From assembly GCA_031261425.1 (NCBI GenBank), contig JAISJR010000006.1:9701-73700 (forward strand): a stretch of DNA of 64,000 nt. Reading direction: 5' to 3'. Source of the stretch: Planctomycetota bacterium (GTDB taxonomy: Bacteria > Planctomycetota > SZUA-567). Each line of letters begins with the position of its first letter. The first letter of the stretch is position 1. The position numbers and the translations under genes are program-made. Below are positions 4,180 through 33,775 of this stretch, piece after piece. The notes under the pieces are model-generated. The model saw nothing but the letters and a program-made list of their open reading frames with translations, made no database searches and was not told the DNA's origin.

Positions 4180-4198
4180 AAACGCTCCTGAACAGTTC

Positions 4199-13242: not shown

Positions 13243-16200
13243 CTACTTCTCCGCCCCATACCCTAACGCCTGCGCTTGCGCGCGATACGCCGCCGCTTTT
13301 TCCGCGTCTTTTTCCACGCCGAGTCCTTCGGCGTAAATTCGCGCCAACCGCGCGACGGCGCGCGGGATTTTTTTCTCGGCGGCTTTTTCATACCACGCGC
13401 GGGCTTGCGCGTAGTCCGGCTCGCCCGTCCAACCGTTGTCGTAACTCAAACCCAAGTTCAGCATCGCGTTGCCGTCGCCCGCCTCCGCCGATTGGCGATA
13501 CCACTCCATCGCTTTTTCTTTGTCCGCCGCCGTGCCGCGACCGGTGAAAAACGCCACGCCCAAACTGTTCATCGCCGCCGCGTTGCCCGCCTCCGCCGCC
13601 TGTTGGTAATACTGAAACGCCGGCGCGTAGTCCTGGTTATGATTGTAAAGGTTCGCGAGATTGTTGAGCGCTTCGGCGCGCGCCGCCGGAGGCAAGCCGT
13701 CCGTTTCGACCGCCCGCTTCAAATCGACCAACGCCAATTCCCACTTGTTTTGCGTCATTCGCGTTTTGCCGCGCCAATAAAACGCCTCCGCCGACTGCGG
13801 GTTTAAGTCCAGCGCGTTGCCGAACAGTTGTTCCGCCGCCGCGAAATTTTTCGCCGCCAGCGCCCGCCGCCCTTCGTTGACGAGGAGCGCCGCCTGCTCG
13901 GCGTTGCTCTCGCCTTCAAGCGCCTCGTTTTCCTGCGGCGAGGGCGGCAACAGCGGCGGCGCGTCGTCGCGCGGTTTTTCGCGCGCCACGCGGTCAAGCA
14001 ACGCCAGCGTTTCCGCGTCGTTGGCGTAGCCGCGCAATTTCAGAATCTCGCGGAAAATCGCCTCGGCGACTTCGTATTGTTTCATCGCCAGCGACCGCCG
14101 CCCTTCGCCGAGCATCGCCTGATACTCCGCCGCCTGCGTCGCCTGTTGCCGGTCGTATTCGGAAATCGCGACGCCCTGCAAGTCCATTTTTTCGCCGTCG
14201 CGGTTAAATTCTTTACCCTGCGCCTTGCACGCCGACTCCAACAGCGTCAGCGCCTGCTCGTCGTCCTCGAAACCGGACAGGCGCAACGCCGCGCGCGCCA
14301 GCGTTTCGCCGCGGATGAAATTACCGGAGCGGAGCGCGTCGCGCGTTTCGTTCAACAATTCGTTAAATTCGGCGCGTTGTTGCGGCGTCGCGGCGTCGCG
14401 AATTTCCGGCTGTTGATTGTTCGCCGCCGCCAAGCCGCGTTTCGCCGTCGCGTCGTTTTCGTAGCCCTTTAATTTCCGCGCCAACTCAAACGTCCGCGTC
14501 GCGTCAACCCACGATTTTTCTTTCAGATAAACCTTGCCGCTGAAAATCAATTTGTCGTAGAGTTCGCGATTTTTCTCGCGCTGTTGCGCCAAATTTTCCG
14601 GCGAATTTTGGCTTTCGGTCAAACGGTCGGTCGCCATTTTCAACAGCGCCGTCGCCGCCGCGTCGTCCTTAAAATCCTTCCACTGCAAAACGTTGTTCAG
14701 CAATTGCACCGCCGCGTCGAATTTGCCGTCGTCCATAAATTGCTTGGCTTGCGTCATCGCCAAATTGTAAGTCGCCATATCGCGCTCCGAGCCGGCGCCG
14801 ATTTTTTCGTCGGTTTCGCGTTGTTGTTGCCGGTCGTGTTCGTATTGCGCGATGTTGCCGCCGAGTTGCGGCAACGCTTCGTTCGCCGCGCCGTCGAGCG
14901 TCAGCGCGTAGCGGTAAAGATACGCGCCGGCGACCCATTGCCGGTCGCGCAATTGCGAGGTGGCGTTGCTCAACACGGCTTCAAAATCGGTGAACTTGAC
15001 CGCGTCGCCGAGTTTGCGTTTGGCTTCGAGCGCGCGGTTTAAGCCGTCCACGGCTTGCGCGTCGTCGGCGATGCCCGGAATGACCAACGCCAACTGAAAC
15101 GCCTGTTCCGCGTAGCCCCAATTTTGCAAGGCGAGATTTTTCCGCCCTTCGTCGAGCGCCGCCTGATAAAAACGCTGACGCTCCGGCGTGGGCGCAACTT
15201 GCGTTTTTGGCGGCGCCGCCGGACGCGCGGACGCCGCCGCCGCCGGACGCGCGGCGGGCGCGACGAACTCGTCCGCGGACGCATCCGCGCCGAGCGACTC
15301 GGCGAGCGCCGGATTGACTTTTTCCAAGCCGGCGGCGGGACTCTTCGGCGACGCCACCGGCGCGTCCGCGGCGAGAAGCAGATTTTGCACTTTGCCGGTC
15401 GTGGCGGTTACGCCGCGATTGGCGGTCGGGTCGTCCAAATAACCGGGCAACTGCAACGCCAGCGCGTAATGGCGCGAGGCGGCGATAAGTTCGCCGGCGC
15501 GCTCCTGCCGCTCCGCCAAGTTAATCAGATAGCGATAAGGCGCGGAAAAATCCGGCGCCGCCGGCGCGGTCGGTCGCGGCAACGGCAGACGCAGAATCTC
15601 CGGCACGAGCGCCGTAAAAGACGGCAACGCCAGCGCGAACTCTTCGTTTTGGTCTTCCTGTCCGCCGGCTTGTTCCAAATAACGCGCGGCTTGATTCGGG
15701 TCTTTCGGCACGCCGCGCCCGCGCTGATACATATCGGCGAGACGCGCCGCGGCGCGAACGTCCCCGCGCTCGGCGGCTTGGGTGAAATAATTCGCGGCAA
15801 GCGCGTAATCGCGATTGACGCCGGCGCCGCGAAAATACATCAGCCCGTTGTTGAACAGCGCGACCGGCAAATCGCCGGCGCCGGTCAACAATTCGCGCGC
15901 CTGTTCGTAGTCGCGTTTGACGCCGCGACCGGTGAGATAACACACGCCCAGATTGTTTTTCGCCAGCGCGTCGCCGAGTTGCGCGGCGGCGGCGAACGCG
16001 GCGGCGGAGCGTTCGTTGCTCACCTGCCCGCGCAGTTTGCGCCGCTTTTCGGTCAGCCCCAAACCGCCGTCGTAATAAATGTAGCCCTGCACGACGGCGG
16101 CGGACGCGCTCGCCGGCGACGCGCTCGCCGGCGACGCACTCGCTAGCGCGGAATTTTTATATTTTTCAATCCAGTCCAACGCCGCGTCGTAAGCGCGGGC

Positions 16201-19051
16201 GTCCAACGCGAGCAACGCCTGCGCCAAAAGCGCGGGCGCGAAATTCGCGTCGCCGGCGAGGGCTTCGTTAAATTGCGTCTCGGCGTTTTTCGGGTCGGCG
16301 GCAAGCGCGAACAACACGCCGCTCGCCCACCGCCACGCCGCCGGTTGCGCGGCGCCCGTCGCGCCGGAGGCGAAAGTCGCGGCGGCGTCCGCGTATTTTT
16401 CCTGCGTGATTTGCTCCCGTGCGAGCGTCATTTGGTCGGCTAAATCCGCCGCGCGCGCCCCGTTCGCGCCGACGGCGACGGCTTGCAACACGTCGATTAA
16501 CGGACGCTCGTCCGGCGCGACTTGCGCGGCGAGCGCGGTTAATTTTTCCGCCGCCGCCGCGTAGTCCCGATTGCGCCAGTCGCGCAACACCGCCATCAAG
16601 GCGGCATAAACCGGCTCGCGGCGATTGGCGTCGCTCTGACCGGCAATCGCTTTTTGCCGTCCGGCTAACGCCGTTTCGTCGCCCGCGTAACCCGGAATCG
16701 TCAACGCCCGCGCGAAAACGCGCTCGCTGTCCGACCAGCAACCGGCAAGCAACAACTCGTTGCCGCGCCGCATCAATTCGTCGAATTGCGCATCGCCGCC
16801 ATCATCCTTCCCAATGCTCTCTTCCCTTTTCCCTTTTCCCTCTTCCCCTTTTCCCTCTTCCCTTTTCCCTTTTCCCTCTCTACTCGCCGCCTCCGCCAAC
16901 CGTTTCCCGCGAAGCGCGACTTCGTTTTTTTCGTAACCCGGCACCGCTAGCGCCAAATTGAAGACCTCGATAGCGGCGAGATAATCCTTTTGCGCGAGAA
17001 GTTTTTGCGCCTCGACGAGCGCCGCGTTGAAACTGCCGGCGCGGTCGGCGTCGGGATTGGGGTTTTGACTTGCCGCCGTCCGCACTTGTTCGCGCAAGCG
17101 CAACGCCTGCGGATTGTCGCCGTAGCCCTCGACGCTGAGCGCCCACGCGCACGCCAATTCCGCGTCTTCGTATTTTTGCGCGGCGAGATTCTGCTCGGCT
17201 TCTTTCAGCGCGGACCTGAATTTGCCGGCGCGCGCCTCGGCGAGAACTTTTTGTATGTCGGCGTCGGCGGCGTCAATGCCCGCGAGCAACGCCGTTTCCG
17301 CGTCGGTGTATTTTTGCGCGGCGAGCAATTCGCCCGCCTGTTGCAACAACGCGGCTTTACGTTCTTGTTTGGCGAGACCGTTTTGCGCGGCTTGTTTCAG
17401 TCCGGCGATTTCCGGCGCGTCGCTCCCCGCTTCGTTAAATTTCGCGAGCGCTCCGGCGTAATCCCGCTCCCGCATCAGCGCGTTGCCCTCGGCAATTAGT
17501 TGAGACGCGGCGGATTCCGCCTGCACTGCCGCCGGCAGAGACGCCGCAACCGTCGCCGATGGAATCGCGGGCAACCCTTCGTCCAATTCAAAATCCGGCG
17601 TCGCGTTCGCCGAAACCGTGCCGGTCGCCGGAACCGCGTCGTCGTCCAACTCCAAGTCCGTTGCGTCCGCGCCAACCGTCGCGGTCGGAACCGCTTCGGG
17701 AATCGCCGGCAAGTCGGACAATAAATCAAATTCCCCTCCCGCCCCTCGATTTTCCGCCAACATTATTTCGTCTTGCGGCAGTTCGTCGCGCGACGACTCG
17801 TCGCGTAGCGACCTCACCGGACGCGCGGACGCCGGCGGAATGTCAATGCTCACTTCGTTGGCTTGCGGGCTTGCCCAATCGTCGGCGATGCTTAACGCTA
17901 TTTTCTCCGCCGGTTTTTGCGGCGAAAACGCAAAACCGCCGATGATAAAGGCGAAAAATAAAACGGCGGCAACGCCCGCGTAGCGCCAAAGATTTCTTTC
18001 TCGCGCCGGCGCGGGCGCGGCGTCTTCGACCGGCGCGGGCGGCGCGTCGTCAATCAGCGCGGGCGGCGCGGGCGGCGCGGACGGGAAAAGATTGCCGATA
18101 TTCCGCGTCTCGTCGTGATGCCAACTACATTCGACTTCGGCGGCGACGCTTTCTTCGGCGAGAAATTTATCGAGGTCGGCGGCAAGTTCGCCCACCGAGG
18201 CGTAGCGCGTTGCCATCGCGCCGACGACGATATTGGCAAGCCGCGGCGGCACGGTCGGCGGCAACGCGACGCCGCCGTTTAACAGCGCCAAAAATTCCGA
18301 CCGGTCGGCGGCGCCCGCAAACGGATGTTCGCCCACGGCGAGGAAATACAAAATCGCGCCGAGCGCGTAAATATCGCCCGCGACCGTCGGTTCGCCGCCG
18401 CGCAAAATCTCCGGCGCGACATAACCGAACCGCGCGGGCGAAAACGCCGTTTCGTCATCGACTAACGGCGCGATGCCGGTGAGCAACAACCGCGCGTCAT
18501 TGGCGGCAAGCCAGATATTTTCGGGACGCAAATCGCCGTGATAAAATTCGCGCGCGTGCAGATAGGCAACCGCGTCAAGCGCGCGGCGCAGACCGGCGAG
18601 TTTTTGCGGTAGAGGCAACGCGGCGGCGTCGGCGGGCGCGAAATTTTCGAGCGGCGCTAGCACGACAAACGGCGCGGACGCGGCGTCGCGCTCCGGCGCG
18701 GCGAAAAGCCAATTGAGGCGCGGATGGCGCAAATAGACCAAATTGGCGGCGTCGCGCTGAAACCGTTGCCGGTCGGCGAGTTCGTTGGCGCGGAAAAGCC
18801 AGACCTTGCCCGTCGGCAGAGGCAGATTTTGCGCGGCGAGCATTGAGCGCAACGTCGCGGGCGACATCGACGCGAACGCGGAGCGCAACCGGCGCGCGGC
18901 GGCGGCGCGCTCGCCTATCGGCGTCGCGGCGTCAACCTGACTGTAAGCGTAAAGTTCCGCCGCGTCAAAATCGTCGGCGACCGCGGCAAAGAGCGAGCCC
19001 AAACGCAAATTGCGGAGCAAAGTTTGCTTGGCAAACATAATAGTCCCCATC
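13243..19051 (-). CDS. Giant membrane protein: degenerate protein-kinase-like N-domain + TM + ~1500 aa of TPR/Sel1 repeats
   Basis: 'HGDLRPENIW' catalytic-loop-like and 'FGYVAPE' APE motifs but no Gly-loop/VAIK and no DFG ('TGIAP'); one TM helix; long TPR and C-terminal Sel1-like repeats; start codon uncertain (19038 or 19051). Confidence 0.75.
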
Positions 19052-19198
19052 GTTTTCCGGTGAACGCGCGCCGGACGCGAACTTGCCGCGCGCAAGAAAA
19101 GAAACAAGAAAAAAAACAAGGACAAGTGTATGAAAAAATCGCCGAAATCTAACGAAATTTTCAACTTTTTGCGGAGTGATAATTTAGCCGCCGGTCGG

Positions 19199-20602: not shown

Positions 20603-20629
20603 AGTTCAGAGTTCAGAGTTGAAAAAGAT

Positions 20630-20832
20630 GCTCTATTCAATTGCCACGCCTTTTAAGGCGTGGTAGGCGGTCAAAAAAAAGAAAGGGCTTTAGCCCAAAA
20701 TAAAAAATGCGGTCTCATTCCACCGGCTTTAACCGAACAATTGTTCGGGGCTAAAGCCCATTTATTTTTTCTGACCGCCCACGAAAAAACCGCCCCGTTA
20801 AAGGGCGGTTTTATCAATTCGTTGCAACTCGC
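20630..20832. repeat. R3 element, degenerate copy (left 21-bp TIR intact, right end decayed)
   Basis: Begins 'gctctattcaattgccacgcc'; internal 'gggctttagccc...ggggctaaagccc' hairpins match complete copies at 34186 and 44479. Confidence 0.65.
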
Positions 20833-20866: not shown

Positions 20867-21718
20867 TTACCGCTGGATGCCGCCGCCATAATAGCCGTAT
20901 TTAACGCGGAAATTTTCTTGCGCCGCGCTTAATTTTTCCCAAAGATATTTGTCGCCGGACAACGCCGCGGTGATTTTCTCTCGCTCTTCCACGCTTAAAA
21001 AAGTCCGTCCGCCGCTCGGGTCAGCGCTTCTAATGCCGACTTGATAAACGGCGGCGCGATTGAAACTCTGGGCTTGCACCGAAGCGTATTTGGCAAGTTC
21101 GGGATTGACGCCCGCGTTTTTCAATTTTTTTCGCACGTAATCAAAAAGCGCGTCGCGCTCCGCCATACTCTCAAATTCCATATCCGTAAAAAAATTGTCT
21201 TGCACCGTTTCGACGAATTGCCCGTTGCGCTCCGCCACCGTGTGGCTCCAACCCTTGGCGTCGGGAAGCACTCGCGAAATTTCTTGCAATACCTCGCGGT
21301 GATACACCGAGTCGTAAACACCGTTAGGTATGCGCGGGTCGCCGCCGCCGGCGTTCCGCGCGGCAATTTCGGCAAAGTCATAGACCTGGTTTTCGTCGAG
21401 CGTTACCACGTATGCCGGTTCATTCCACAGCGACGGTTTTTCCGCGCTCGCTTCCGGTTTCAACATTCGCAAAATGCTGTGCGTTTTTATATCGCCGCGC
21501 AACGCCGCCGTGATTTCGTCTTTGTTCGCGACGTCGCCGAGAACTTTAACCTTGCCGTTTTCGTCGAGGTCAAGCGAAAACTCGCCTTCGGCTTTGACGC
21601 CGGCGCGTTCCAACACCGCCGCCGCGTGGTCAGCCAAGACGTCTTCGACGCCGCGCGGTTTGACGGTCGCTTGCTTGTAATAATTGACGTAATCGCTCGC
21701 GTTTATGGAGTTAGACAT
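20867..21718 (-). CDS. Hypothetical protein, paralog A of a tandem pair (repeated 'ITAALSGD' motif)
   Basis: 283-aa ORF clearly homologous to 22866..23789 ('LDLDENGKVKVLGD', 'KITAALSGDKYL'). Confidence 0.65.
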   Translation of the reverse strand: MSNSINASDYVNYYKQATVKPRGVEDVLADHAAAVLERAGVKAEGEFSLDLDENGKVKVLGDVANKDEITAALRGDIKTHSILRMLKPEASAEKPSLWNEPAYVVTLDENQVYDFAEIAARNAGGGDPRIPNGVYDSVYHREVLQEISRVLPDAKGWSHTVAERNGQFVETVQDNFFTDMEFESMAERDALFDYVRKKLKNAGVNPELAKYASVQAQSFNRAAVYQVGIRSADPSGGRTFLSVEEREKITAALSGDKYLWEKLSAAQENFRVKYGYYGGGIQR

Positions 21719-21989
21719 TTTCTCGCCTCCTGAATAATTGATTTGATACCATCCTCTTCCGAAGAATAAAACTCTATCGAATTTTTATTACGGAAGAGGA
21801 CAAAATTAGGATAAATAATGAATTTATTTTTCCTGATCGGATACTTGTTTCTCATCTGGCGTATTCGCCGGCGTGAAAATTGGTCTCGCCAGAAAATTAC
21901 GTTTGTCTTCTCTTGACGATAGATTTTTATGTTCGTCGGACAATGAATTTTCAACCACGACAGGTGATTTAGATTCTATGTCTGTCTTT

Positions 21990-22140
21990 CGAGATATACG
22001 GCGGCGCGTTTTGCTTCTTTAATTAAAAATCGGGACCACGTTAAAAAAAAAAGTAAAATTTTTCAGAATGGTTTTTATTGACCGCGCAAGGCGGGGCGAC
22101 CGGCGAAGATTTTATTAAACAGGTCTAATCGCCGAAATTC
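21990..22140. repeat. Duplicated ~150-bp 5' block, copy 1 (second copy at 23829..23975)
   Basis: Near-identical 'cgagatatacggcggcgcgttttgcttctttaattaaaaatcgggaccacgtt...atggtttttattgaccgcgcaaggcggggcgaccggcg'. Confidence 0.75.
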
Positions 22141-22251
22141 GCCAATAAATCGCGATTTATCGTCTTGACAATCGCGGTGTTTATTTATCCAATTCACGCC
22201 TCGTTTTTTCGCGCGAGGATTATTCCGTCCGATAAATACAACGGTAAAAAA

Positions 22252-22560
22252 ATGGAATTTGACGAAGACGAATTTGCGTGGAGCGAGTGGAAAAATCGCG
22301 TTAATCGGCGCAAACACGGAATTTCATTTGCAGAAGCCGTTGAAATTTTTGCCGACCCGCATTTGTTGGAAGTTCCCGACGAGGAACATTCAATCAATGA
22401 GGAACGTTATATTTGTTACGGCTGTATTGATGATTTGATTTTGGCGGTCGTGATTGCCGATACCGGCGAACAGACGCGGCTAATTTCGGCTCGCCGCGCC
22501 TCCCCCCACGAAGAGAAAGTTTATTATGCCTATTACCGCGCCGCGCTTGGCGGAAATTAA
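22252..22560 (+). CDS. brnT: BrnT-like (DUF497) ribonuclease toxin
   Basis: 'MEFDEDEFAWSEWKNRVNRRKHGISFAEAVEIF...ISARRASPHEEKVY' matches the BrnT/DUF497 pattern. Confidence 0.7.
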   Translation: MEFDEDEFAWSEWKNRVNRRKHGISFAEAVEIFADPHLLEVPDEEHSINEERYICYGCIDDLILAVVIADTGEQTRLISARRASPHEEKVYYAYYRAALGGN

Positions 22561-22723
22561 AGCGTTCAAAAATGTCGATTTTTCCGATTGTCCGCCGCTC
22601 ACCGGCGAACAGGCGGCGCGGTTGCGTCCGTCGCGACACCGCGAACGCGCCGCCGCGCATCGTTTAGCGCGGCAAATGGCGGAAGCCGCCGCTTTCGGCA
22701 AAGAGGAGGTCTTACTGCGATAA
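22526..22723 (+). CDS. Putative BrnA-like antitoxin partner (weak)
   Basis: Small ORF overlapping the 3' end of brnT, contains 'KNVDFSD' like BrnA N-termini; start may be TTG 22547. Confidence 0.35.
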   Translation: MPITAPRLAEIKAFKNVDFSDCPPLTGEQAARLRPSRHRERAAAHRLARQMAEAAAFGKEEVLLR

Positions 22724-22740
22724 ATTTAGCGTTTAGCGTT

Positions 22741-22838
22741 AGACAAACACGCCGTCATCGTCTTCGACGCCGCGCGGTTTGGTCGTCGCTTGCTTGTAGT
22801 AATTGACGTAATCGCTCGCGTTTATGACGTTAGACATT
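22741..22838 (-). pseudogene. N-terminal fragment of a third copy of the 20867/22866 paralog family
   Basis: Minus strand encodes 'MSNVINASDYVNYYKQATTKPRGVEDD...', near-identical to paralog A N-terminus including its RBS region, then breaks off. Confidence 0.55.
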
Positions 22839-22865
22839 TTCTCGCCTCCCGAACAACCCGACTTA

Positions 22866-23789
22866 TTACGCCATCTGAATACCGCGCTTACTCACGCCGT
22901 TATGCATTCCGTAAATATCCCGCATTTGGGCGGCATACTTGTTTTGCGCGGACACCAAACTATCAAGAAGATATTTATCGCCGGACAGCGCCGCGGTGAT
23001 TTTTTGCTTTTCGTCGTCGCTCAACGGCGCGTAATGAGCCGCGTTCGCGACGATTTCATAGCGGTCGCTACGCCAATCATAATTGAGGTCTAACGTCGCG
23101 CGCTTGACGACTTCCGCGTCGATACCCGCGTTTTGCAGTTTTTTCAGCGTGTAATCGAAAAGTTTTTCGCGCTCGTCCATACTGTCAAAATCCATTCCCG
23201 CGAAAAAAATGTCTTCCCGCTTTTCCAACCACTGGTCGTTGGCGATGTCATTGACGTTGCGATGTAGCCAGCCGCGGTCTTCGACTTCCCATAAATGTTC
23301 CGGCTGACGTTTTTCCACCTCTTTGAATACTTCTCGCAGGTAATGTTGTTGATACAGTTTGTCCAAAAGCGCGTTGCCGCCGGCGTAAGGCGCCGGCGTA
23401 TCGGCAAGCCGGTGAACGCCCTCGCTGAGGTCAACGATGCTGGAACGCGAGTCCCACAGCGACGCATTTTCTGCGTCCGCCGAATTTTCAACCGCCGGCG
23501 CGGGCTTTAACCAACGCAAAATGCTGAGGGTTTTCATATCGCCGCTCAACGCCGCCGTGATTTCGTCTCGGTTCGCGGCGTCGCCGAGAACTTTGACCTT
23601 GCCGTTTTCGTCGAGGTCAAGCGACAAGTCGCCGGCGTTTTTTATGCCCGCGCGTTCAAGCACCGCATTGACGTGCGCGTTCAAACTTTCTTCGACATTG
23701 CGGTATTGGGACGCCGGTTTTTCGAGAACGGCAAGGACGTAATTGTTCAGATAACCGTTTGCCGCCGGCAACATTTGGTTGGGTATCAT
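22866..23789 (-). CDS. Hypothetical protein, paralog B of tandem pair
   Basis: 307-aa ORF homologous to 20867..21718. Confidence 0.65.
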   Translation of the reverse strand: MIPNQMLPAANGYLNNYVLAVLEKPASQYRNVEESLNAHVNAVLERAGIKNAGDLSLDLDENGKVKVLGDAANRDEITAALSGDMKTLSILRWLKPAPAVENSADAENASLWDSRSSIVDLSEGVHRLADTPAPYAGGNALLDKLYQQHYLREVFKEVEKRQPEHLWEVEDRGWLHRNVNDIANDQWLEKREDIFFAGMDFDSMDEREKLFDYTLKKLQNAGIDAEVVKRATLDLNYDWRSDRYEIVANAAHYAPLSDDEKQKITAALSGDKYLLDSLVSAQNKYAAQMRDIYGMHNGVSKRGIQMA

Positions 23790-23960
23790 TGTTGTTTCTC
23801 CTCCGCCGAAAAAATCAACCCCATCAACGAGATATACGGCGGCGCGTTTTGCTTCTTTAATTAAAAATCGGGACCACGTTAAAAAAAATTAAAATTTTTC
23901 AGAATGGTTTTTATTGACCGCGCAAGGCGGGGCGACCGGCGGAGATTTTATTAAACCGGG

Positions 23961-25613
23961 CTAATCGCCAATCAGCCGCGCCATCGTCGTCAGCGCGGTC
24001 AAGCCGTAGGCGCGGGCGACTTCCGACAGGCGCGTCAGCGCGGCGGCGCGGGCGTTTTTGTCCGGCGCGTCGATGACGGTTTGCAAAATTTCCAGCGCGT
24101 AGCCGTAAGCCCACGCCGCCCGCAAGTCGTTCGCGGCGGGATTAACCGCGCTCGCCGCCGGACGAAAATAAAATTCGCGCGGCGCGGCGTTCAAACCCGC
24201 CACACGAATAACGGCGCGCTCGCTCAACGCCCCGCGCCCGCGCAATATAAGCGGTTGTCCCCGATACAAATTCGGCAACACCCGCGGAAAAACCGCATCG
24301 GTGCCGGTGCAATTCGCCGCGCAAGCGAACAACACCGGCGCTTCGTAGGCGCGAAAAAAATCCCGCATTTCCGCCGCCGCCGTCGCCGTCGAAGTTTGCC
24401 GCCGGAAAAAACCGCGCGACCGATACGCCAACAATTCCAACAAATCCGCCCTGCCCTTGTCGCCGACCATAAACGTAAAAATCGAAAAATGGTCGCGTTG
24501 CGCGCGGCTAAAATCCTTGACCAACTGCCGGACTTCCTTCACCCCGTAATTGGCGAAGCCGTCCGTGATTAAAAATATGTTGCACGGGCGTCCGTCGTCG
24601 CTCTGCCGCGCCAAAATCATCTGCGTAACGCGGAACAAATCCGTCATATACTCGCCGCTCGGACGCGAGAAAAATCTTGACAAACTCGCCGGTATTTCTC
24701 CGGCGGGCAAAAAGTCGGGACTGAACCGATGCACGCGCTCGCTGAATTTGACGACGTTCCAGCGGTCGCCCGCCGGCAAAGTTTGCAGATAATCGCCAAT
24801 CGCCTCGCGCATCGCGCGAATGGCGTCCGACGAAATGCTTTGACTCACGTCCAACAAAAACAACACGTCTTTGGCTAACGCCGGCAACGCGCTGTCCGCG
24901 CGCACCGTCAGCGACAATTGAAAATACGGCGACGGGTCGGCGGCGGTCGGCGGCGCGTAAAAAAGTTGCGCCGTCAAATCGTTTTCGAGCGACCGGCGCT
25001 CAGACACGGGCGGCGGCAACACCGGCATCGGCGCGGCGGGCTGAAAATCGGGCTGAACATCAAACTGAAAATTTTCCGGCGACGGCGGCGACGGCGGCGG
25101 CAACGCGAAAACCGGCGCCGACCAATGCAACGGCGGCGGCGGATTGTCGTTCCGCCCGGACAAGACCAACTGTTTTTCCACCGGCGCGAGGTATGAATCG
25201 GTCGCCGGACGGCGCAGTTCCGGCGACGCGACGACCGGCGCGGGCAACCAATTTTTTCCCGCCGCCGCCGGCGGCAGATTTAACGCCGGTAACGGCGGCA
25301 CGGCTAACGCCGCGGGCATGGCGACCGGCGGCAATTCCGGCAAATGCGCGGCGGGAAGCGACGGTAAGTTTTCCGCCGCGCGATAATTGCCCTGATAAAA
25401 ATTTTCCGGCAACGCGGGCGCGGTCAACGCGGGCGCGGGCGAAGCGGGCGGGGGCGGAAGCGGCGTTAAATCGACGGCGAAAAGACGCTCGACCTGAACG
25501 CGAAAATTATCCACGTCCCACATCACCCAATAACCGGCGAGCAACAATAAAACGGTCATCGCCGCGAGCGCGGCGCCGAACGCGACGGCGGCATCGGAAC
25601 GAGGGGCAGGCAT
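23961..25613 (-). CDS. von Willebrand factor type A domain membrane protein with Pro-rich linker
   Basis: N-terminal TM; MIDAS 'DVSQSIS' (DxSxS) and VWA fold. Confidence 0.75.
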   Translation of the reverse strand: MPAPRSDAAVAFGAALAAMTVLLLLAGYWVMWDVDNFRVQVERLFAVDLTPLPPPPASPAPALTAPALPENFYQGNYRAAENLPSLPAAHLPELPPVAMPAALAVPPLPALNLPPAAAGKNWLPAPVVASPELRRPATDSYLAPVEKQLVLSGRNDNPPPPLHWSAPVFALPPPSPPSPENFQFDVQPDFQPAAPMPVLPPPVSERRSLENDLTAQLFYAPPTAADPSPYFQLSLTVRADSALPALAKDVLFLLDVSQSISSDAIRAMREAIGDYLQTLPAGDRWNVVKFSERVHRFSPDFLPAGEIPASLSRFFSRPSGEYMTDLFRVTQMILARQSDDGRPCNIFLITDGFANYGVKEVRQLVKDFSRAQRDHFSIFTFMVGDKGRADLLELLAYRSRGFFRRQTSTATAAAEMRDFFRAYEAPVLFACAANCTGTDAVFPRVLPNLYRGQPLILRGRGALSERAVIRVAGLNAAPREFYFRPAASAVNPAANDLRAAWAYGYALEILQTVIDAPDKNARAAALTRLSEVARAYGLTALTTMARLIGD

Positions 25614-25795: not shown

Positions 25796-26014
25796 ATGGC
25801 TACCACCAAAAAAACGCCGGCGGCAAAAGCCCCCGCGAAAAAAACAGCGGCGACGAAAGCGCCCGCGAAAAAAGTAGCGGCGGCAAAAGCCCCCGCGAAA
25901 AAAGCGACCGCCAAAGCGCCGGTCAAGAAAGTCGAAAAGAAAGTGGAAAAAGTCGCCGCGTCCAAAGCGCCGGCGAAAAAATGCACGACCTCCTGCGGTT
26001 GCAAAAAGAAATAA
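25796..26014 (+). CDS. Histone H1-like Lys/Ala-rich nucleoid protein (KAPAKK repeats)
   Basis: RBS 'aaagaggg' before ATG; 'TKKTPAAKAPAKKTAATKAPAKKVAAAKAPAKKATAKAPVKK'; followed by a terminator at 26037. Confidence 0.6.
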   Translation: MATTKKTPAAKAPAKKTAATKAPAKKVAAAKAPAKKATAKAPVKKVEKKVEKVAASKAPAKKCTTSCGCKKK

Positions 26015-26072: not shown

Positions 26073-26094
26073 GTTGGAGTTGACCCTCTAAATA

Positions 26095-26212
26095 CGAATT
26101 AAAAATTACAAATTAAAAATTAAAAATGATGGAGTTTGATTTTCAAATTGCGCGAAACGAATTTGAGAATCAAACTCCGCAATTTTTAATTGTGAATTTT
26201 TAATTGTGAATT
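26095..26212. repeat. R2 element (complete)
   Basis: 'aattaaaaattacaaattaaaaattaaaaat' - 'ggagtttgattttcaaattgcgcgaaacgaatttgagaatcaaactcc' - 'gcaatttttaattgtgaatttttaattgtgaatt'. Confidence 0.8.
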
Positions 26213-26215
26213 GCC

Positions 26216-27307
26216 CTACCCGAATTTTCCGCTCGCGATTTTGCCGAAACATTCCAACAACTTCGCCGAGACGACGCGCGAGGAAAATTCTTTTTCGACG
26301 CGCGAGCGCGCGTTATACGCCAGCGCCGCCCGCTTCGGCGGATTTTTCAGCAAGTCGCTAATCGCCTCGCTCATCGCTTTCGCGTCCTGACTTTTCACCA
26401 ACAAACCGGTTTCGCCGTCTTTGACCAAATCGAAAATGCCGCCCACGCCGCTCGCCACCACCGGCACGCCGCTCGCCATCGCCTGCAACACCGACAAGCC
26501 GAACCCCTCGCGATGCGTCGGCTCCACAAAAACGTCGATGTTCATCAGATTGTGCGAGCCGCCCATCGTGCTGAACGAAAACGTCAGCCGGTTGTCGATG
26601 CCAAGACCCCCGGCTTCGTCGCGCAAATACTGTTTGTCCGCGCCCTCGCCCATAATCAAAAATTCGACGTCAAAGCCCTGCGCAATCACTAACGCCGCCG
26701 CTTTGAGAAAATCGCGTTGCCCTTTGTTTTCGGCTAACGTGCCGTAAGTGCCGACGACCAACGTCCGCGTTTTTTGGTCCGCGTTGACGAGCAGACGCGA
26801 CGGGGACGCCGGAAACTGCCGCAGGTCCAAACCGTTCGGCACGATAAAAATGCGCTCTTCCGGCAGACGCAAATGCAAAATCAGCGGCGTGCGAATCGCG
26901 TCCGACAAGGCGACGACGCCCCAGTTGACTTGATTCAACGGCAGTTTGCGCAGATATTTTTCGCCGTCGGTGCGGTTGACCGTCAGCGCCAGCGGCGCGC
27001 CGCAACGCTTCGCGACGGGGACGCCGAGCGCCGCGACTTCGACGCAAGTCGTGTTGACGATTTCCGGCTTAAACGCGCGCGTTAGTTTGCGCCCGCGCCA
27101 GTCGAACCAGCCGCCGAGTCCGGGCAGGACGTATTCGGAAATTTTGCGCGCGTCGATTTGGCGGAACATTCCGACCCGCTCGCCGCCGCGCGGCGCGACG
27201 ACCATTATTTCACAACCGGCGGCGACTAAATCCGGCAACAGATTCAGCGTGGCGAACGCCGCGCCGGAGAGACCGAAATCGGGAAGGATTTGCAGGATGC
27301 GCTTCAT
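26216..27307 (-). CDS. Glycosyltransferase family 4
   Basis: GT4 C-terminal fold ('...EGFGLSVLQAMASGVPVVAS...'). Confidence 0.8.
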   Translation of the reverse strand: MKRILQILPDFGLSGAAFATLNLLPDLVAAGCEIMVVAPRGGERVGMFRQIDARKISEYVLPGLGGWFDWRGRKLTRAFKPEIVNTTCVEVAALGVPVAKRCGAPLALTVNRTDGEKYLRKLPLNQVNWGVVALSDAIRTPLILHLRLPEERIFIVPNGLDLRQFPASPSRLLVNADQKTRTLVVGTYGTLAENKGQRDFLKAAALVIAQGFDVEFLIMGEGADKQYLRDEAGGLGIDNRLTFSFSTMGGSHNLMNIDVFVEPTHREGFGLSVLQAMASGVPVVASGVGGIFDLVKDGETGLLVKSQDAKAMSEAISDLLKNPPKRAALAYNARSRVEKEFSSRVVSAKLLECFGKIASGKFG

Positions 27308-28748: not shown

Positions 28749-29852
28749 CTAATCCACCACCAAGTCCGCCTGAATCGCGTCGGCGCGTTTGAGTTCGACT
28801 AAAATGTTGATGACGTCCTCGGTGGTGCAACGCATCGCCATCAACGTATCGACCAACGATTGCAACGACCGCCGCCCGCTCCCGCCGGATTCGTTGTGTC
28901 CGAACAAATCAACGAGCGCGCGCGGCGTGTCGTTTTCGAGCGTGTAAGCCGGCGGGCGATTTTCGCCGCCGTCCTGCAACGTAACGGTGCGCCCCTGATA
29001 GGTGATGAAGCCGGGCTGAATCCCGATGTTGCCGGTAATCACCGCCGCGCCGGTCGAGCGGTTGATGCGAATCCGCGCCACCGCTTCAATCGGCACTTCG
29101 CCGTCCAAAATCGCCGCGATGTAATCGACTTTGCGCTTCATATATTGGTCGGGAATCCGCACCAGCACCATTCCGGCGTCAATCGCTTTCGCCACTTTCG
29201 GCGTGTTGTCGGCGCCGTCGCTCGAAAAGCCGGTTTGTTGCTGATAGTTCGGATTGGTTTTCGGGTCTTTGTTGATGTTGTTCTCAATCATCATCGCGTC
29301 CATATAGTTCGGCGATTTCAGCACCAAACGGAAAAAACCGTTTTGGTCCACGACCGTCCGGTTGAGCATTTCGCCGTTCAGCACCTGCCCGCCTTCCTGC
29401 ACGATGCCAATCGTCGGCGTGCCGCCGACCATCACCCGCCCGCTCGCCCACACCAACGCCTGCTCGTCCTCGGAGCGGAATTTTAGCGACGTGCCTTTCA
29501 GCGAGCCGTCGCGAAGATTGCTCGCGTCGCCAATCGAACTGACGCGAATCGGAATCCGGTCGCCGGGGCGGGCGAACGGCTGAATTTCGGCTTCAATCCG
29601 CACGACGGCGATATTTTTCAATTTCAAATCGGTGGTCGAAAAATTGAAATTATTCGCCGCGAAATACTTCTGCAACATAATGCCGGCGTTCTTGGCGCTG
29701 TCGCCGGTGCCGTTCAGTCCGACGACGATGCCGATGCCCTCGACGTGCATCGGGTCGGCGTTGAGCAAGCGGCAGACCTGCCGGATTTTTTGCGCGTTCG
29801 CCGCCGGCGCGACGGCGCACAGCAAGAGCAAGATGATGAGGTAGCGTTTCAT
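28749..29852 (-). CDS. flgI: Flagellar P-ring protein FlgI
   Basis: Signal peptide; 'GIVVGLNGTGD' and full-length FlgI similarity. Confidence 0.9.
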   Translation of the reverse strand: MKRYLIILLLLCAVAPAANAQKIRQVCRLLNADPMHVEGIGIVVGLNGTGDSAKNAGIMLQKYFAANNFNFSTTDLKLKNIAVVRIEAEIQPFARPGDRIPIRVSSIGDASNLRDGSLKGTSLKFRSEDEQALVWASGRVMVGGTPTIGIVQEGGQVLNGEMLNRTVVDQNGFFRLVLKSPNYMDAMMIENNINKDPKTNPNYQQQTGFSSDGADNTPKVAKAIDAGMVLVRIPDQYMKRKVDYIAAILDGEVPIEAVARIRINRSTGAAVITGNIGIQPGFITYQGRTVTLQDGGENRPPAYTLENDTPRALVDLFGHNESGGSGRRSLQSLVDTLMAMRCTTEDVINILVELKRADAIQADLVVD

Positions 29853-29871
29853 CGTGAAATCCTTTTCCATA

Positions 29872-29985
29872 CAGAGTTAAGCGTTGAGAGTTTAGAGTTG
29901 AGCAGAGGTCGCGCTTCGCGCATTATTAAAATAACTCCACTGCTCAACTCTCAACTCTCAACTCTCAACTCTAAACTCTACTCTT
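29872..29985. repeat. R1 heptamer-array palindrome (canonical core)
   Basis: 'agagtttagagttgagcagaggtcgcgcttcgcgcattattaaaataactccactgctcaactctcaactct...'. Confidence 0.85.
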
Positions 29986-30753
29986 TTAGAACGGCTTAAA
30001 TTTATTGACGACTTTGGCGAGCCATCCTTGGCGGATGCTGTCCGAGACCTCGCCTTTGCCGTTGAACGCGATGCGCAAATTCATCACGCGCTCGCCGGGG
30101 ACTTCGGAATTTTCATTCAGGTCGTTCGGGTCCACCACGCCGGAAAACAGCACGTCTTGCGTTTCGTCGTTGATGCGAATTTGTTTGCGCGCCTCCACGA
30201 CCAAATGACCGTTGGGCAAAACCTCGACGACGTTGCCGCTTAATTTGGTGGTGAACGTGCCGGTGCGGTTGGTTTTGCCTTCGCCTTTGTGCTCCATTTC
30301 GGCTTCAAAGTTGACCTGCGCGTAGTTGTCGCCGGTTTGCGCGGCGTCGATACTGCCGTCGGCGCTGGTCATCGAATACGGTTTTAACACGCGGTCGCCG
30401 TTGGCGTTTCGCCCGAGTTTGAACCAATTCTTCAAATTGATGAGATTGCTGTTTTGGGATTTCAATTCGTTTTTCGCCTCGATTTTCGTGTCGGTTTTTT
30501 CATCGACGAGAAACGTTACGCGGTCGTGGACTTTATTGGCGCGCGGCTTGACTAATTCGTTGATGTCGGCGCGGTAAGCGTGAAAAAATTTCGCCGCCGT
30601 GCGCTCTTCCGCCAGCGTCGTTTCAATCGCTTCCTCGTCGAGCGTTTTGCGCGCCATCTCGGCTTTGGAAATCGGCTCATACTCCCGATAGACATCGGCG
30701 GCGGCGGCGGTCGCGGTGAAAATCAGCGACAGCGCAATGATGGTTTTCGACAT
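29986..30753 (-). CDS. flgH: Flagellar L-ring lipoprotein FlgH
   Basis: Signal peptide; 'LSGNVVEVLPNGHLVVEARKQIRINDETQ' FlgH core. Confidence 0.85.
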   Translation of the reverse strand: MSKTIIALSLIFTATAAAADVYREYEPISKAEMARKTLDEEAIETTLAEERTAAKFFHAYRADINELVKPRANKVHDRVTFLVDEKTDTKIEAKNELKSQNSNLINLKNWFKLGRNANGDRVLKPYSMTSADGSIDAAQTGDNYAQVNFEAEMEHKGEGKTNRTGTFTTKLSGNVVEVLPNGHLVVEARKQIRINDETQDVLFSGVVDPNDLNENSEVPGERVMNLRIAFNGKGEVSDSIRQGWLAKVVNKFKPF

Positions 30754-30772
30754 TTTTAATCCCCCCGTTTTT

Positions 30773-31867
30773 TTAATTGCCCGACCGCACCAACTCCGCC
30801 GTGCCGCGTCCGGTCAGCCGGACTTTGTAAGTGCGTTTGCCGTCGCCGGCGCTTTGCACCGTGATATAGTCGCCGACTTTGCCGCCGCTGACCGCGACCG
30901 TTCGCTCTTCGATGACGAAGCCGTCGCCGCCGGCGCGGACAATCACCTCGTCGCTTTTTTTGACGATTTCCGGCGTGCCGAAATCCGCCGCCGACAGCGG
31001 CGCGCCGGCGCGCAAGGCGCGGCGACATTCGCGTCCGCGCAACGACGCCAGCGTCAGCCGTTCGGGGCGCGTGCCGGCGTATTTTTCAAATTGCATCGCA
31101 ATATCGCCGTCGCCGATAATATCGCCCGCGTTCATCGACCGCGCCAAAACCGGCGTGCTTAATTCGACCTCGACAAACATTTCCGCCGTGCCGTAATCGC
31201 TGAGGTTGCCCTGACCGTCGTAGGTCGTCAGGTCAACCACGAGCCGCCCCGGAATCCGCCCCTGCCGCACGCCGGTAATTTCCAGCGTTTCATAATCCTT
31301 GCGCGTCATCGTTACGCGCCGCACGTCGATTTTCGCCCGCGCCTCAATGCCGCTGAATTCATTGTCAATAAATTTGTCGAGCGATTTTTTCAACGCCTTT
31401 TCGGTCTTGGCGTCCACCGCGCCGGGGCGCTCCGCCCGTTGCGCCGGAATGACCGCGATTGCCGGGGTTGGTTTTGCCGCCGCCCCCACGACCGGCAACG
31501 CTTTTGCCGGCAGATTAGTCGTCGCCGGATTCGGTTTGTTCGCGCTATTTGCCGCCGGCGCCGGCGGACGGGCGGCGACGGTAACGCAGACCTTTTCACT
31601 GCCGGCGAAAACGACGTCGCGGTCGAGTCCGAGCGTCCGCAGACGCTCGCGCAGTTCGGGGCGCGTGAACGTTTTTTGTCCGCCGCGCGCCGGCGCGGGC
31701 GCGAGAAATTGCTTCCTAATCAGCGTCGCGTGGTCGCCGCTAATCGCGCCGAGGTCGGCGAAACAGATGTATTCGCTCCCCGCCGTCGCGACCTCCGCGA
31801 GCGTGATGACCGTGTCGGCGAAAGCGGCGGGAGCGAGAGTCAGGAGTAGCGCGAGAACTTTTTTCAT
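30773..31867 (-). CDS. flgA: Flagellar basal-body P-ring formation chaperone FlgA (SAF domain)
   Basis: C-terminal 'LRGRECRRALRAGAPLSAADF...VKKSDEVIVRAGGDGFVIEERTVAVSGGKVGDYITVQSAGDGKRTYKVRLTG' matches FlgA/SAF. Confidence 0.7.
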   Translation of the reverse strand: MKKVLALLLTLAPAAFADTVITLAEVATAGSEYICFADLGAISGDHATLIRKQFLAPAPARGGQKTFTRPELRERLRTLGLDRDVVFAGSEKVCVTVAARPPAPAANSANKPNPATTNLPAKALPVVGAAAKPTPAIAVIPAQRAERPGAVDAKTEKALKKSLDKFIDNEFSGIEARAKIDVRRVTMTRKDYETLEITGVRQGRIPGRLVVDLTTYDGQGNLSDYGTAEMFVEVELSTPVLARSMNAGDIIGDGDIAMQFEKYAGTRPERLTLASLRGRECRRALRAGAPLSAADFGTPEIVKKSDEVIVRAGGDGFVIEERTVAVSGGKVGDYITVQSAGDGKRTYKVRLTGRGTAELVRSGN

Positions 31868-31888
31868 TGGTCTATTCCATTGTTTAAC

Positions 31889-31992
31889 AGAGTTTGGAGT
31901 TAAGAGTTTAGAGTTTAGCAGAGGTGGCGCTTCGCGCATTTTTAAGATAACTCCACTGCTCAACTCTAAACTCTGAACTCTAAACTCTATCT
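31889..31992. repeat. R1 heptamer-array palindrome (canonical core)
   Basis: '...gagtttagcagaggtggcgcttcgcgcatttttaagataactccactgctcaactctaaactct...'. Confidence 0.85.
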
Positions 31993-32787
31993 CTTTAACG
32001 ACGCCACGGTCTGCAACATCGAGTCCGCCGTTTGGATGGTGCGCGAGTTAAATTCGTAGGCGCGCTGGGCGCTAATCATATTGACCATTTCCGTCACGGC
32101 ATCGACGTTGGAACCCTCAATCCAGCCGCCCTGCACCGTGCCGAAACCGGCGTCGCCGGGGTTGCCCGCCGTCGCCGGACCGGACGCGGCGGACTCAAAC
32201 CACAGGTTGCCGCCCTCGGCGTGCAGTCCCGCCGGATTGATAAAATTATAGACGCCGACGCGCGGTCCGACTTGCTGAATGGCGCCGTTTTCATCGACGT
32301 ATTGCAGTTGTCCGCCCGGCGTGAAAGTTACGTCGCGCGCGCCGGTCGGCAGTCCGGCAATCGGCGGATTTAACGGATAGCCGGAGGAGTTACGCACTTC
32401 GCCGTTGTTGTCCACGGTGAACGAGCCGTCGCGGGTGTAGGCGATGCGTCCGTCCGGCATCGTCAGCGAAAAAAACGAAGTCGTGTCGGTAATCATCAAA
32501 TTCGTCGGCACGCCGGTTTGAAGCGGGTTGCCCATCACGAAAACCGGCGTGGTGGCGGCGAGGCGCACGCCGTTGCCGATTTCGACGCCGACCGGAATGT
32601 TGACGCCGGGGTCGGCGCCCTGAATACCGGCGGCGCGCACCGTTTGATAATACAAATCCTGAAAATTCAGGTGGCGCTTTTTGTAGCCGTTCGTATTGAC
32701 GTTGGTCAGGTCGTGCCCGATGGAGTCGATGAAATCCTGCATCGCGTTCATCCCCGTCGCGCCCGTCCATAAACTGCGAATCATCAT
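31987..32787 (-). CDS. flgG: Flagellar basal-body rod protein FlgG
   Basis: 'MIRSLWTGATGMNAMQ' N-terminus and C-terminal 'MVNMISAQRAYEFNSRTIQTAD' rod-protein motif. Confidence 0.9.
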   Translation of the reverse strand: MMIRSLWTGATGMNAMQDFIDSIGHDLTNVNTNGYKKRHLNFQDLYYQTVRAAGIQGADPGVNIPVGVEIGNGVRLAATTPVFVMGNPLQTGVPTNLMITDTTSFFSLTMPDGRIAYTRDGSFTVDNNGEVRNSSGYPLNPPIAGLPTGARDVTFTPGGQLQYVDENGAIQQVGPRVGVYNFINPAGLHAEGGNLWFESAASGPATAGNPGDAGFGTVQGGWIEGSNVDAVTEMVNMISAQRAYEFNSRTIQTADSMLQTVASLKR

Positions 32788-32812
32788 TTGGGTATCCTCC
32801 TTTTTTGAAGAA

Positions 32813-32917
32813 CAGAGTTGAGAGTTGAAAGTTTAGAGTTGAGCAAAGGTCGCGCTTCGCGCATTTTTAAGATAACTCCACTGCTAAACTCTCAACTCTA
32901 AACTCTCAACTCTCTCT
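32813..32917. repeat. R1 heptamer-array palindrome (canonical core)
   Basis: Same arms and core. Confidence 0.85.
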
Positions 32918-33747
32918 TAACCGGCTCTCGCCGTCAGGCGCGACAGCGCCTGTCCGAGCGTTTGGTCTTGCATCGTGATAAACCGCATATTCAACTCAAA
33001 CGACCGGTGCGCGTTAATCATATCCACCATTTCATAGACCGGATTCGTCGCCGATTGTTCGAGCAGTCCCGACTTCGTGTCGGCGGTGCGGTTGACGGTG
33101 TCGAACGTCAATTCGTAATTAATCGTTTTATCCGGCACGTATTGATTGTTGCCGAGTTGGCGCAACGCGAAGTGGGCTTCTTCTTTGGTAATCGACGCCA
33201 GCCCGACTTGTCCCAACACCGCGTTGTCAACAAAGTCGTTGGTGACGGTAACGACGCCGTTGTCGCCGACTTTATAGAAGCCCTGCGAGCCGGTGAGTTG
33301 GATAGGTCCGCCGCCGCCGTCCAGCACCAAATCGCCGTCGGTGGTCACCAACATTCCGTCTTCGGCGCGCATAAACGTCCCGTTGCGCGTGTAGCGAACG
33401 TCATCGTCGGCGGCGTCGCGCGGGCGCACCATAAAAAAACTGACGCGGCTACGGTCTTTGTCGTTAATCGCCATATTCAGCGGATTGTCGGTGGTAACGA
33501 CCGGACCGGGCGTAAAGTCGGTCGTCGTGCGGTCCATCCACGCGCCGCCGCCGGTTTTTTCGAGTATCACGTCGATTTCGCGCCGCCCGTCGCCTTTGAT
33601 GACGCTTTCGGCGGGCACGTCGCGGAAAATGGAAAAATTCGGCTTGAAGCCGTCGGTGTTGGCGTTGGCGAGATTGTTGGAAACGGTCTCGTGCCGCGCC
33701 ATCTCGCACGTCGCGCCCATCGTCGAAAGATACATACCGTTAATCAT
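32917..33747 (-). CDS. flgF: Flagellar basal-body rod protein FlgF
   Basis: Rod-protein N-terminal 'LSTMGATCEMARHETVSNNLANANTDGFK' and C-terminal 'MVDMINAHRSFELN' motifs. Confidence 0.85.
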   Translation of the reverse strand: MINGMYLSTMGATCEMARHETVSNNLANANTDGFKPNFSIFRDVPAESVIKGDGRREIDVILEKTGGGAWMDRTTTDFTPGPVVTTDNPLNMAINDKDRSRVSFFMVRPRDAADDDVRYTRNGTFMRAEDGMLVTTDGDLVLDGGGGPIQLTGSQGFYKVGDNGVVTVTNDFVDNAVLGQVGLASITKEEAHFALRQLGNNQYVPDKTINYELTFDTVNRTADTKSGLLEQSATNPVYEMVDMINAHRSFELNMRFITMQDQTLGQALSRLTARAG

Positions 33748-33775
33748 TTTTTACTCGTTTCGTTGTCGGCAAGCA

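Follow-up and report, generated by a model that had tools for sequence, protein, structure and literature searches.

The window analyzed here comprises 64,000 nucleotides (nt) of a Planctomycetota bacterium of the SZUA-567 lineage (GenBank assembly GCA_031261425.1, contig JAISJR010000006.1, positions 9,701 to 73,700 of the forward strand), and all positions are counted from its first letter. It contains two paralogous genes of an uncharacterized family, here referred to as P1 and P2 (locus tags LBP75_00630 and LBP75_00645), and between them a BrnT-family toxin gene (brnT) with a small overlapping open reading frame (ORF), orf65. An initial annotation, made from the letters alone, had described this locus as a gene of unknown function that underwent repeated segmental duplication or recombination together with a toxin-antitoxin (TA) module, and had suggested that it may be variable or recently acquired. 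Here we describe the anatomy of the locus, the origin of each of its repeated segments, and the occurrence of the cassette and of P1/P2 relatives in other genomes.

Organization of the P1/P2 locus

The features of the locus are listed in Table 1. Read along the minus strand, which carries the P genes, the order is the gene for a von Willebrand factor A (VWA)-domain protein, block A, 38 nt with a ribosome-binding site, P2, 28 nt with a ribosome-binding site, the stub, and the cassette; past the cassette, which is antisense here (22758 to 22151), come a filler of approximately 9 nt, block B, the AT-rich spacer of 252 nt, a ribosome-binding site, P1, and the terminator. The DNA between P2 and P1 is a patchwork of approximately 1.1 kb. 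P1 and P2 are each preceded by a strong Shine-Dalgarno sequence, and hslV lies beyond the P1 terminator on the opposite strand, convergent with P1. The palindrome at this terminator was also listed on the plus strand in a terminator scan, and a sigma-70 promoter and terminator scan returned sites that were no commoner than in shuffled sequence.

Table 1. Positions of the features of the P1/P2 locus and of the dispersed repeats in the window
Feature	Position	Strand	Remarks
P1	20867-21718	-	283-aa member of uncharacterized family
P2	22866-23789	-	307-aa paralog of P1
Likely P1 terminator	20790-20815	-	GC-rich hairpin (ccgccc..gggcgg), then T run; read from the sequence
P1 ribosome-binding site and first 26 codons	21640-21737	-	Resident copy of the 98-nt direct repeat
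AT-rich spacer	21738-21989		No strand; hairpin-packed, 252 nt, GC content approximately 0.36
Block B	21990-22141	-	Second copy of the VWA 3' end (9 nt) and the downstream spacer
brnT-orf65 cassette	22151-22758	+	608 nt including its own upstream region; homology to contigs L012, L013, and L014
brnT	22252-22560	+	BrnT-family toxin, 102 aa; PF04365 match
orf65	22526-22723	+	Putative short antitoxin, 65 aa; BrnA-like N-terminal motif
Stub	22739-22856	-	Duplicate of the P1 ribosome-binding site and 5' end; copy of the 98-nt repeat at 22759-22856
Block A	23828-23969	-	Original copy: VWA 3' end and spacer upstream of P2
VWA gene	23961-25613	-	Membrane-anchored, proline-rich VWA-domain protein; upstream, same orientation as the P genes
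GT4	26216-27307	-	GT4 glycosyltransferase
Repeats, REP- or MITE-like	4198-4316, 20628-20783, 26087-26217, 33774-33883, 34131-34359, 44448-44783, 47102-47184, 52413-52500, 53755-53885, 58590-58735		Copies in the window

Three contigs that were assembled independently in Logan from SRR14710919 match the window at 100% and contain every one of the unusual junctions. Contig L015 (26122-23912) joins the VWA gene to block A; L010 (23857-22076) carries parts of both blocks and, between them, P2, the stub, and the cassette; and L006 (22019-20685) links block B to P1 by way of the AT-rich spacer. Each of them stops approximately 30 nt inside one of the exact runs shared by the block copies, as a k=31 assembler does at a repeat, and linkage across both blocks therefore rests on the original 73.7-kb contig of the metagenome-assembled genome (MAG).

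Local sequence is duplicated around the cassette

The initial annotation had pointed out a block of approximately 150 bp present twice and had interpreted it as a 5' block shared by the two paralogs. The repeat is real: its copies differ by four substitutions, located at 22053, 22106, 22121, and 22123 in block B, and by a 2-nt poly(A) indel (96 to 100% identity) and share exact runs of 61 nt and 52 nt, and a 28-mer from it occurs at two places only in the 64-kb window, where the chance expectation is none. Its proposed nature had to be revised, however. The final 9 nt of the VWA gene, ggcgattag, open both copies, with block A lying approximately 38 to 39 nt upstream of the P2 start and block B 272 nt upstream of the P1 start; the block is a duplicated VWA 3' end with its downstream spacer rather than a leader that belongs to the paralog family as such. 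The block was also considered as an RNA element, a candidate that was rejected with a folding z-score of +0.10 and no Rfam match.

The second duplication concerns P1 itself. The segment at 22759-22856 matches the ribosome-binding site and first codons of P1 with 92% identity over 98 nt, Shine-Dalgarno sequence included, and meets the cassette exactly at 22758/22759, so that the stub ORF (22739-22837, 32 codons) runs into the cassette end. The 5' gene fragment that the initial annotation had reported, with its start codon and about 30 codons, is thus present, but it duplicates the 5' end of P1 and is not the remainder of a third gene copy. Divergence amounts to 8/98 in this repeat versus approximately 5/152 (approximately 3%) in the block, which is not a significant difference (Fisher p = 0.14).

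Between block B and P1 lies the AT-rich DNA that had already been noticed as conspicuous, and indeed the GC content over approximately 21700-22100 is 0.36 to 0.39, compared to 0.60 to 0.68 in the flanking genes. Compared to shuffled sequence, this spacer (21719-21995) has a much stronger tendency to fold on both strands (z-scores, -4.45 and -3.37), and two adjacent hairpins (21752-21800 and 21805-21837) are situated immediately upstream of the P1 ribosome-binding site. No homologue of the spacer was found, and it has no match in Rfam.

The brnT-orf65 cassette is found between unrelated genes in other Planctomycetales

A homology search with orf65 returned a single relative, the 65-aa protein P0024 with 91% identity, from assemblies labeled "Planctomycetales bacterium." The corresponding contigs of GCA_026001705.1, GCA_026001725.1, and GCA_026001765.1 (L012, L013, and L014) carry an equal pair, that is, a 102-aa BrnT and a 65-aa ORF with the identical overlap, between LRR_5 and ankyrin-repeat genes. 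At the DNA level, positions 22151-22758 of the window match a 618-nt segment of these contigs with 92.9% identity and end sharply at both sides, the right boundary (22758) abutting the 98-nt repeat and the left one lying 9 nt from block B. The unit includes its own upstream region with a TTGACA box and the palindrome ATCGCGAT. Since copies that are 93% identical stand between unrelated genes in three Planctomycetales assemblies, the cassette is mobile. Furthermore, the sole other coding match between the window and these contigs (43016-43254) is only 77% identical, all others being short intergenic repeats, and the GC content at third codon positions (GC3) of brnT is 0.49, compared to 0.64 for P1 and P2 and 0.72 to 0.78 for the neighboring genes. 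Judging from these sequence comparisons, the brnT-orf65 cassette is a recent, horizontally mobile arrival, and to this extent the suggestion of a recently acquired locus holds.

A comparison of the cassette copies (window positions 22252-22723 and L012 positions 9727-10198) revealed 12 nucleotide and 7 amino acid changes in brnT and 11 nucleotide and 6 amino acid changes in orf65, while both frames are intact. Substitutions are spread evenly over the three codon positions (5/3/4 in brnT and 3/3/5 in orf65), with no clear purifying selection. Constraint on the TA genes thus looks relaxed, or selection on them may be diversifying.

With regard to known mobile TA units, the cassette resembles small TA cassettes that bear a promoter and move between chromosomal contexts, such as those of chromosomal integrons, in being a discrete unit of approximately 600 nt with sharp boundaries and 93% identity in unrelated neighborhoods. 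It differs from them in that no integron integrase lies near it, although an attC-like site was not specifically searched for, and in that the insertion is accompanied by local duplications and filler DNA, for which reason illegitimate recombination would fit better than site-specific integration. No mobile machinery was found near the locus; the sole integrase-family gene in the window is XerC/D-like and located 30 kb away (53888-54778), and the window is ordinary chromosomal DNA with this one XerC/D-like gene.

Two observations were made on the way. Palindromic intergenic repeats of approximately 70 to 135 nt, resembling repetitive extragenic palindromic (REP) sequences or miniature inverted-repeat transposable elements (MITEs), are dispersed in the window (Table 1) and are common to L012, L013, and L014; in L012, one copy lies just upstream of the brnT cassette. 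In addition, the proteins encoded on either side of the cassette in L012 are a leucine-rich repeat (LRR) protein (7290-9323) and an ankyrin-repeat protein (10473-10955). LRR and ankyrin-repeat proteins are typical of host-associated bacteria, which hints that the related Planctomycetales lineage lives in association with a eukaryote.

BrnT and its putative short antitoxin

The presence of a BrnT (DUF497) toxin gene with a small overlapping ORF between the paralogs, as initially proposed, was borne out. BrnT matches PF04365 with 85.4 bits (cutoff, 34.5; E = 3e-24) over profile positions 1 to 77 of 77, and it also matches phrog_4399, "ribonuclease toxin" (E = 1.5e-18), and a solved homologue, PDB entry 7vd7, "toxin" (E = 1e-7). 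By these matches the gene qualifies as brnT; its true start is likely at 22252, giving a protein of 102 aa. The toxin gene comes first and overlaps orf65 by 35 nt, and plasmid brnTA pairs have the same layout with overlaps of 23 to 59 nt. BrnT/BrnA was described as a type II TA system of Brucella abortus (Heaton et al. 2012, as summarized in PMC5086665). The two proteins are coexpressed and form a 2:2 complex that binds and represses its own promoter, and Asp6, Glu7, Lys9, Arg41, and Glu78 of B. abortus BrnT are required for RNase activity (PMC5086665).

The second protein of the cassette is less readily classified. No Pfam family was matched by orf65 even at an E value of 10, and neither a tblastn search of 72,556 plasmids nor a search of PDB produced a match. 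The Pfam family of the BrnA antitoxin is PF14384. When orf65 is aligned with three plasmid BrnA proteins, the only similarity visible is a BrnA-like N-terminal "DFSDxPxLTxE" ("DFSDIPELTxE") motif, and hhalign aligned 22 columns with a pairwise E value of 3.7e-4 and a probability of just 37%. BrnA is about 105 aa long, and the C-terminal "RLDxDVxxW...GYQTRxNxxLR" region of the three aligned plasmid proteins ("RLDxDV...GYQTRxNxxLR" in its core) is absent from orf65 and P0024, both of which end at 65 aa. Autoregulation by DNA binding may thus have been lost in this pair or be accomplished differently. By its position orf65 would be the counterpart of BrnA, and we refer to it as a putative short antitoxin. 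Most probably, the pair acts as an addictive module of RNase toxin and short antitoxin, functionally unconnected to the P genes.

P1 and P2, an old tandem pair with one tract of probable gene conversion

P1 and P2 are 44% identical over their full length (E = 4e-67) and share the motifs that the initial annotation had used to recognize them as paralogs. Synonymous divergence (dS), calculated by the Nei-Gojobori method, varies strongly along the pair: it is 2.1 at the N terminus, 0.26 over codons 30 to 82 (hereafter the N-module), 2.1 in the middle, 0.9 in the C-domain, 1.0 in the C-terminal motif, and 1.4 in the tail. At identical residues the same codon is used in 83 to 94% of cases in the N-module, compared to 17 to 67% in most other windows of the alignment. 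P1 and P2 are an old tandem pair that diverged long ago (dS of about 1 to 2). Selection at the protein level cannot lower dS, and the simplest reading of the N-module value is therefore gene conversion, which suggests that a tract of approximately 160 nt encoding the N-terminal module was homogenized between P1 and P2. This resembles partial concerted evolution of tandem paralog pairs by gene conversion, a general phenomenon, with synonymous saturation everywhere except in one approximately 160-nt tract.

A rare protein family, mainly of Planctomycetota

P1 and P2 had been described as proteins of unassigned function, and we likewise found no described protein family to which they belong; neither protein has a match in Pfam, NCBIfam, PHROGs, PADLOC, or the PDB sequences. 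They are soluble and acidic (isoelectric point [pI] approximately 5; 5.2 for P1) and have no hydrophobic segment (maximum Kyte-Doolittle 19-residue average, 0.57). A word-index search of 5.8 billion proteins with P1 alone or with an 11-sequence alignment returned P1 and P2 only, and an exhaustive HMMER scan of 1.84 billion cluster representatives yielded 11 proteins at E <= 1e-3, of which at least one, the repeat protein P0007, is probably spurious. A match from Akkermansia (L005) was rejected as a chance motif match within an unrelated 642-aa secreted protein. Scans of metagenome contigs with peptide patterns and with the block DNA gave no match, and no family member was found in viral contig, phage, or plasmid collections. 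The P1/P2 family is thus very rare and uncharacterized, and those members that can be placed taxonomically belong mostly to Planctomycetota; one is encoded on OZ223208.1, the 3.56-Mb chromosome of another Planctomycetota MAG.

The genuine relatives are mostly longer than P1 and P2 (186 to 855 aa); P0004, P0012, and the 731-aa protein encoded on L001 are among the long ones. They are acidic proteins in which Ser, Asn, Asp, and Glu are abundant, and their only Pfam signals are below threshold, with no significant match in either Pfam or NCBIfam. Features of the family are an unstructured N terminus bearing a "G-x-Y" motif, the well-conserved N-module "LxLDLDENGKIxVxGxxxNKDEIxAAL-GD," which is repeated within the long relatives, and a "WxxxAYxVxLS" strand. 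The C-terminal part of P1 ("F...F.S..ER..LF.Y...KL..AG" followed by "KI..L.GDKYL") is also found in P0003, P0004, P0006, P0009, and P0010. An "ITAALxGD" motif occurs twice in each P protein and is apparent even at the DNA level; an internal duplication in P1 that would relate the N-module to the C-terminal "ITAALxGD" helix was considered and set aside, hhalign support being weak (E = 6e-4; probability, 29%). Tandem pairs recur in the family: contig L001 encodes two adjacent members of 838 and 731 aa, and L009 encodes a split member followed by an uncharacterized 717-aa gene that is, by gene order alone, a possible second member.

On contig L003, which is 2.5 kb long and was binned as Desulfobulbaceae, a doubtful label, the gene for a close relative of P0005 (2100-2558) has as its immediate upstream neighbors a gene for a large serine recombinase (46-1787) and a small ORF of helix-turn-helix-like type. 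Mobile DNA may therefore carry some of the family members.

Gene neighborhoods of the relatives

Only one conserved neighbor involving the window was detected. Directly upstream of the gene for a distant member, P0019, L016 and L017 encode a glycosyltransferase that shares 48% full-length identity with the GT4 enzyme of the window. With a GT4 gene thus placed next to a distant member in a different genome, the P genes are probably resident at their site and, by this comparison, were not recently acquired; together with the high dS, this speaks against extending the idea of recent acquisition from the cassette to the P genes. VWA homologues and brnT genes were not found in any of the related loci examined.

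In three low-GC relatives, a secreted protein of approximately 460 to 530 aa with faint Big_1/MG4 signals is encoded upstream of the family gene (L001, 6333-7721; L002, 6168-7766; L009, 6293-7813). The proteins of L001 and L002 are homologous (28% identity; E = 3e-11), and the 506-aa neighbor in L009, which has the same faint Big_1 match, resembles them in size and Big_1 signal. This Big_1-like protein is distinct from the VWA protein of the window and might accompany the long-form members as a conserved partner.

Predicted structure and function of the P proteins

An AlphaFold model built from two sequences was discarded as unusable (predicted local distance difference test [pLDDT], 51), and the alignment of 11 sequences gave a model with a pLDDT of 70. 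The confident parts of this model are residues 25 to 88, forming a helix, a beta-hairpin, and two helices, and residues 150 to 277, forming two beta-hairpins with helices; the linker (residues 89 to 148) is disordered. The P proteins are thus predicted to be built of helix, beta-hairpin, and helix-helix modules, and a search with the model produced no significant fold match. Composition, modularity, and the GT4 and VWA neighbors are the only basis for a guess at function: the P proteins might be nonenzymatic modular scaffolds or adaptors tied to envelope or glycan biology, a suggestion that we make tentatively.

Discussion

We consider it probable that the locus combines an old tandem P pair, a recent patchwork insertion around a TA cassette, and a separate gene conversion. 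The ancestral order would have been VWA, spacer, P2, 28 nt, and P1, downstream of GT4. A single complex event, or a few closely spaced ones, would then have placed approximately 1.1 kb into codon 27 of P1. In the order of the minus strand, the inserted DNA would have comprised the 608-nt cassette, opposite in orientation to the P genes, a filler of approximately 9 nt, the spacer copy of 152 nt that includes the VWA 3' end, a foreign segment of 252 nt that is AT-rich and full of hairpins, and a second P1 ribosome-binding site with the first 26 codons. Since the modules abut one another, the filler is short, and local sequence is duplicated, illegitimate recombination or template switching during replication may have been the mechanism. 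Both P genes would be intact afterwards, P1 now having a new upstream region, and the 32-codon stub would be dead; the conversion of the approximately 160-nt N-module tract would have taken place separately from the insertion. The duplicates on either side of the cassette thus agree with the initial proposal of duplication or recombination involving a TA module.

Several points weigh against parts of this history. The order of events cannot be derived from one genome, and the 98-nt repeat and the block need not date from a single event. It is equally simple to assume a circular unit of 1838 bp, consisting of the block, P2, the stub, and the cassette, that integrated by recombination at the block. 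The low dS of the N-module could partly reflect constraint at the nucleotide level instead of gene conversion, and the cassette, given the even spread of its substitutions, may be decaying. For orf65, both the antitoxin role and membership in the BrnA family are putative. Lastly, the GT4 link comprises two loci only, and the family membership of P0011/P0019 is borderline (HMMER E = 3.6e-4).

Other explanations of the locus as a whole were also weighed. That the entire P1/P2 locus, beyond the cassette alone, is a recently acquired foreign islet would be in line with the GC3 of P1 and P2, with the extremely patchy distribution of the family, and with the serine recombinase next to one relative on L003. 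However, P1 and P2 either diverged long ago in this lineage or arrived together, a GT4 gene likewise precedes a family member in a distant second genome, and the family is absent from the phage, plasmid, and viral collections scanned; we therefore regard a foreign islet as unlikely. Somewhat less credence still is given to the idea that the linear order reflects a choice made by the assembler at a repeat, such that the chromosome would read VWA, block, AT-rich spacer, and P1, and the 1838-bp unit would be circular, amplified in tandem to a variable copy number, or derived from a co-occurring strain. The exact runs shared by the blocks leave room for such a choice, as does the fact that all three Logan contigs end where short k-mers are unable to bridge the block. 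On the other hand, the four differences and one indel are spread along the block and can be phased by ordinary reads of 100 to 150 nt, the original assembler produced a single contig, the junctions of the stub with the cassette and of the cassette with block B lie within one independent contig, and a 1.8-kb circle would be without a replication gene.

The gene conversion signature between P1 and P2, the direct repeats of 98 nt and 152 nt flanking exchangeable segments, and the recurrence of tandem paralogs in the family (L001, and L009 by gene order only) could alternatively be taken as signs of a programmed variation locus, with the stub and the blocks serving as substrates for recombination or conversion that varies or switches P1/P2 expression, as in antigenic variation from silent cassettes. 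This is improbable in our view, as there is a single short stub, which duplicates the least variable-looking 5' end, the converted tract is a conserved module and not a variable region, and neither invertible repeats nor a nearby recombinase was found. Finally, the P genes and the TA cassette are physically interleaved, and the whole 3.3-kb region is lower in GC content than its flanks, as might be expected if they formed one functional unit, for instance, a defense or addiction island with the P proteins as effectors or sensors. Against this, P genes do not accompany the cassette in three other genomes, the P relatives occur without brnT in the loci examined, PADLOC matched none of the proteins, and the P genes are interrupted by the cassette, which runs antisense to them; a common unit is therefore very improbable. 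An old P pair that was recently disrupted and rebuilt around an unrelated cassette thus remains the reading that we prefer.

In terms of significance, the rearrangement is real but ordinary and, like the toxin, adds a new instance to a known kind. The locus does provide an example, resolved to the base, of a minimal TA cassette landing in a gene, with nearby sequence being copied and the target gene being rebuilt intact with a new upstream region. In addition, it draws attention to a nearly invisible protein family, which has approximately 10 relatives in 1.8 billion representative proteins, is assigned to neither a domain nor a fold, and has a possible link to a glycosyltransferase. The cell biology of planctomycetes is poorly understood. 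Neither point overturns current understanding, and the value of the locus lies in a catalogue entry and in a lead on the structure and function of the P family and of the short BrnT partner. A more far-reaching proposal can be made only with considerable doubt: P1 and P2 may represent an undescribed modular family, mainly of Planctomycetota, with a fold that has no solved counterpart, with tandem pairs that evolve partly in concert, and with functional coupling to a specific GT4 enzyme, for example, as a glycosylated or glycan-organizing component of the envelope or surface, and orf65 may represent a new class of minimal BrnT antitoxin without the DNA-binding half of BrnA.

Other features of the window

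A flagellar basal-body cluster on the minus strand (28749-33747), with an FlgF-like gene followed by the genes for FlgG, FlgA, FlgH, and FlgI, lies 5 to 10 kb upstream of the locus and is separated from it by a racemase-family gene and GT4. A flagellar role of the P proteins was considered and dropped; flagellar genes are present in none of the relatives' loci examined. Between GT4 and the VWA gene, the opposite strand contains a Lys/Ala-rich ORF of 72 codons (25796-26014, plus strand), the product of which is histone H1-like, with AKAPAKK repeats and a pI of 10.5, and has no Pfam match. On the other side of the locus, an ORF of 1973 aa on the minus strand (13243-19164) appears by eye to encode a protein-kinase-like N-terminal region and long arrays of tetratricopeptide (TPR)/Sel1-like repeats.

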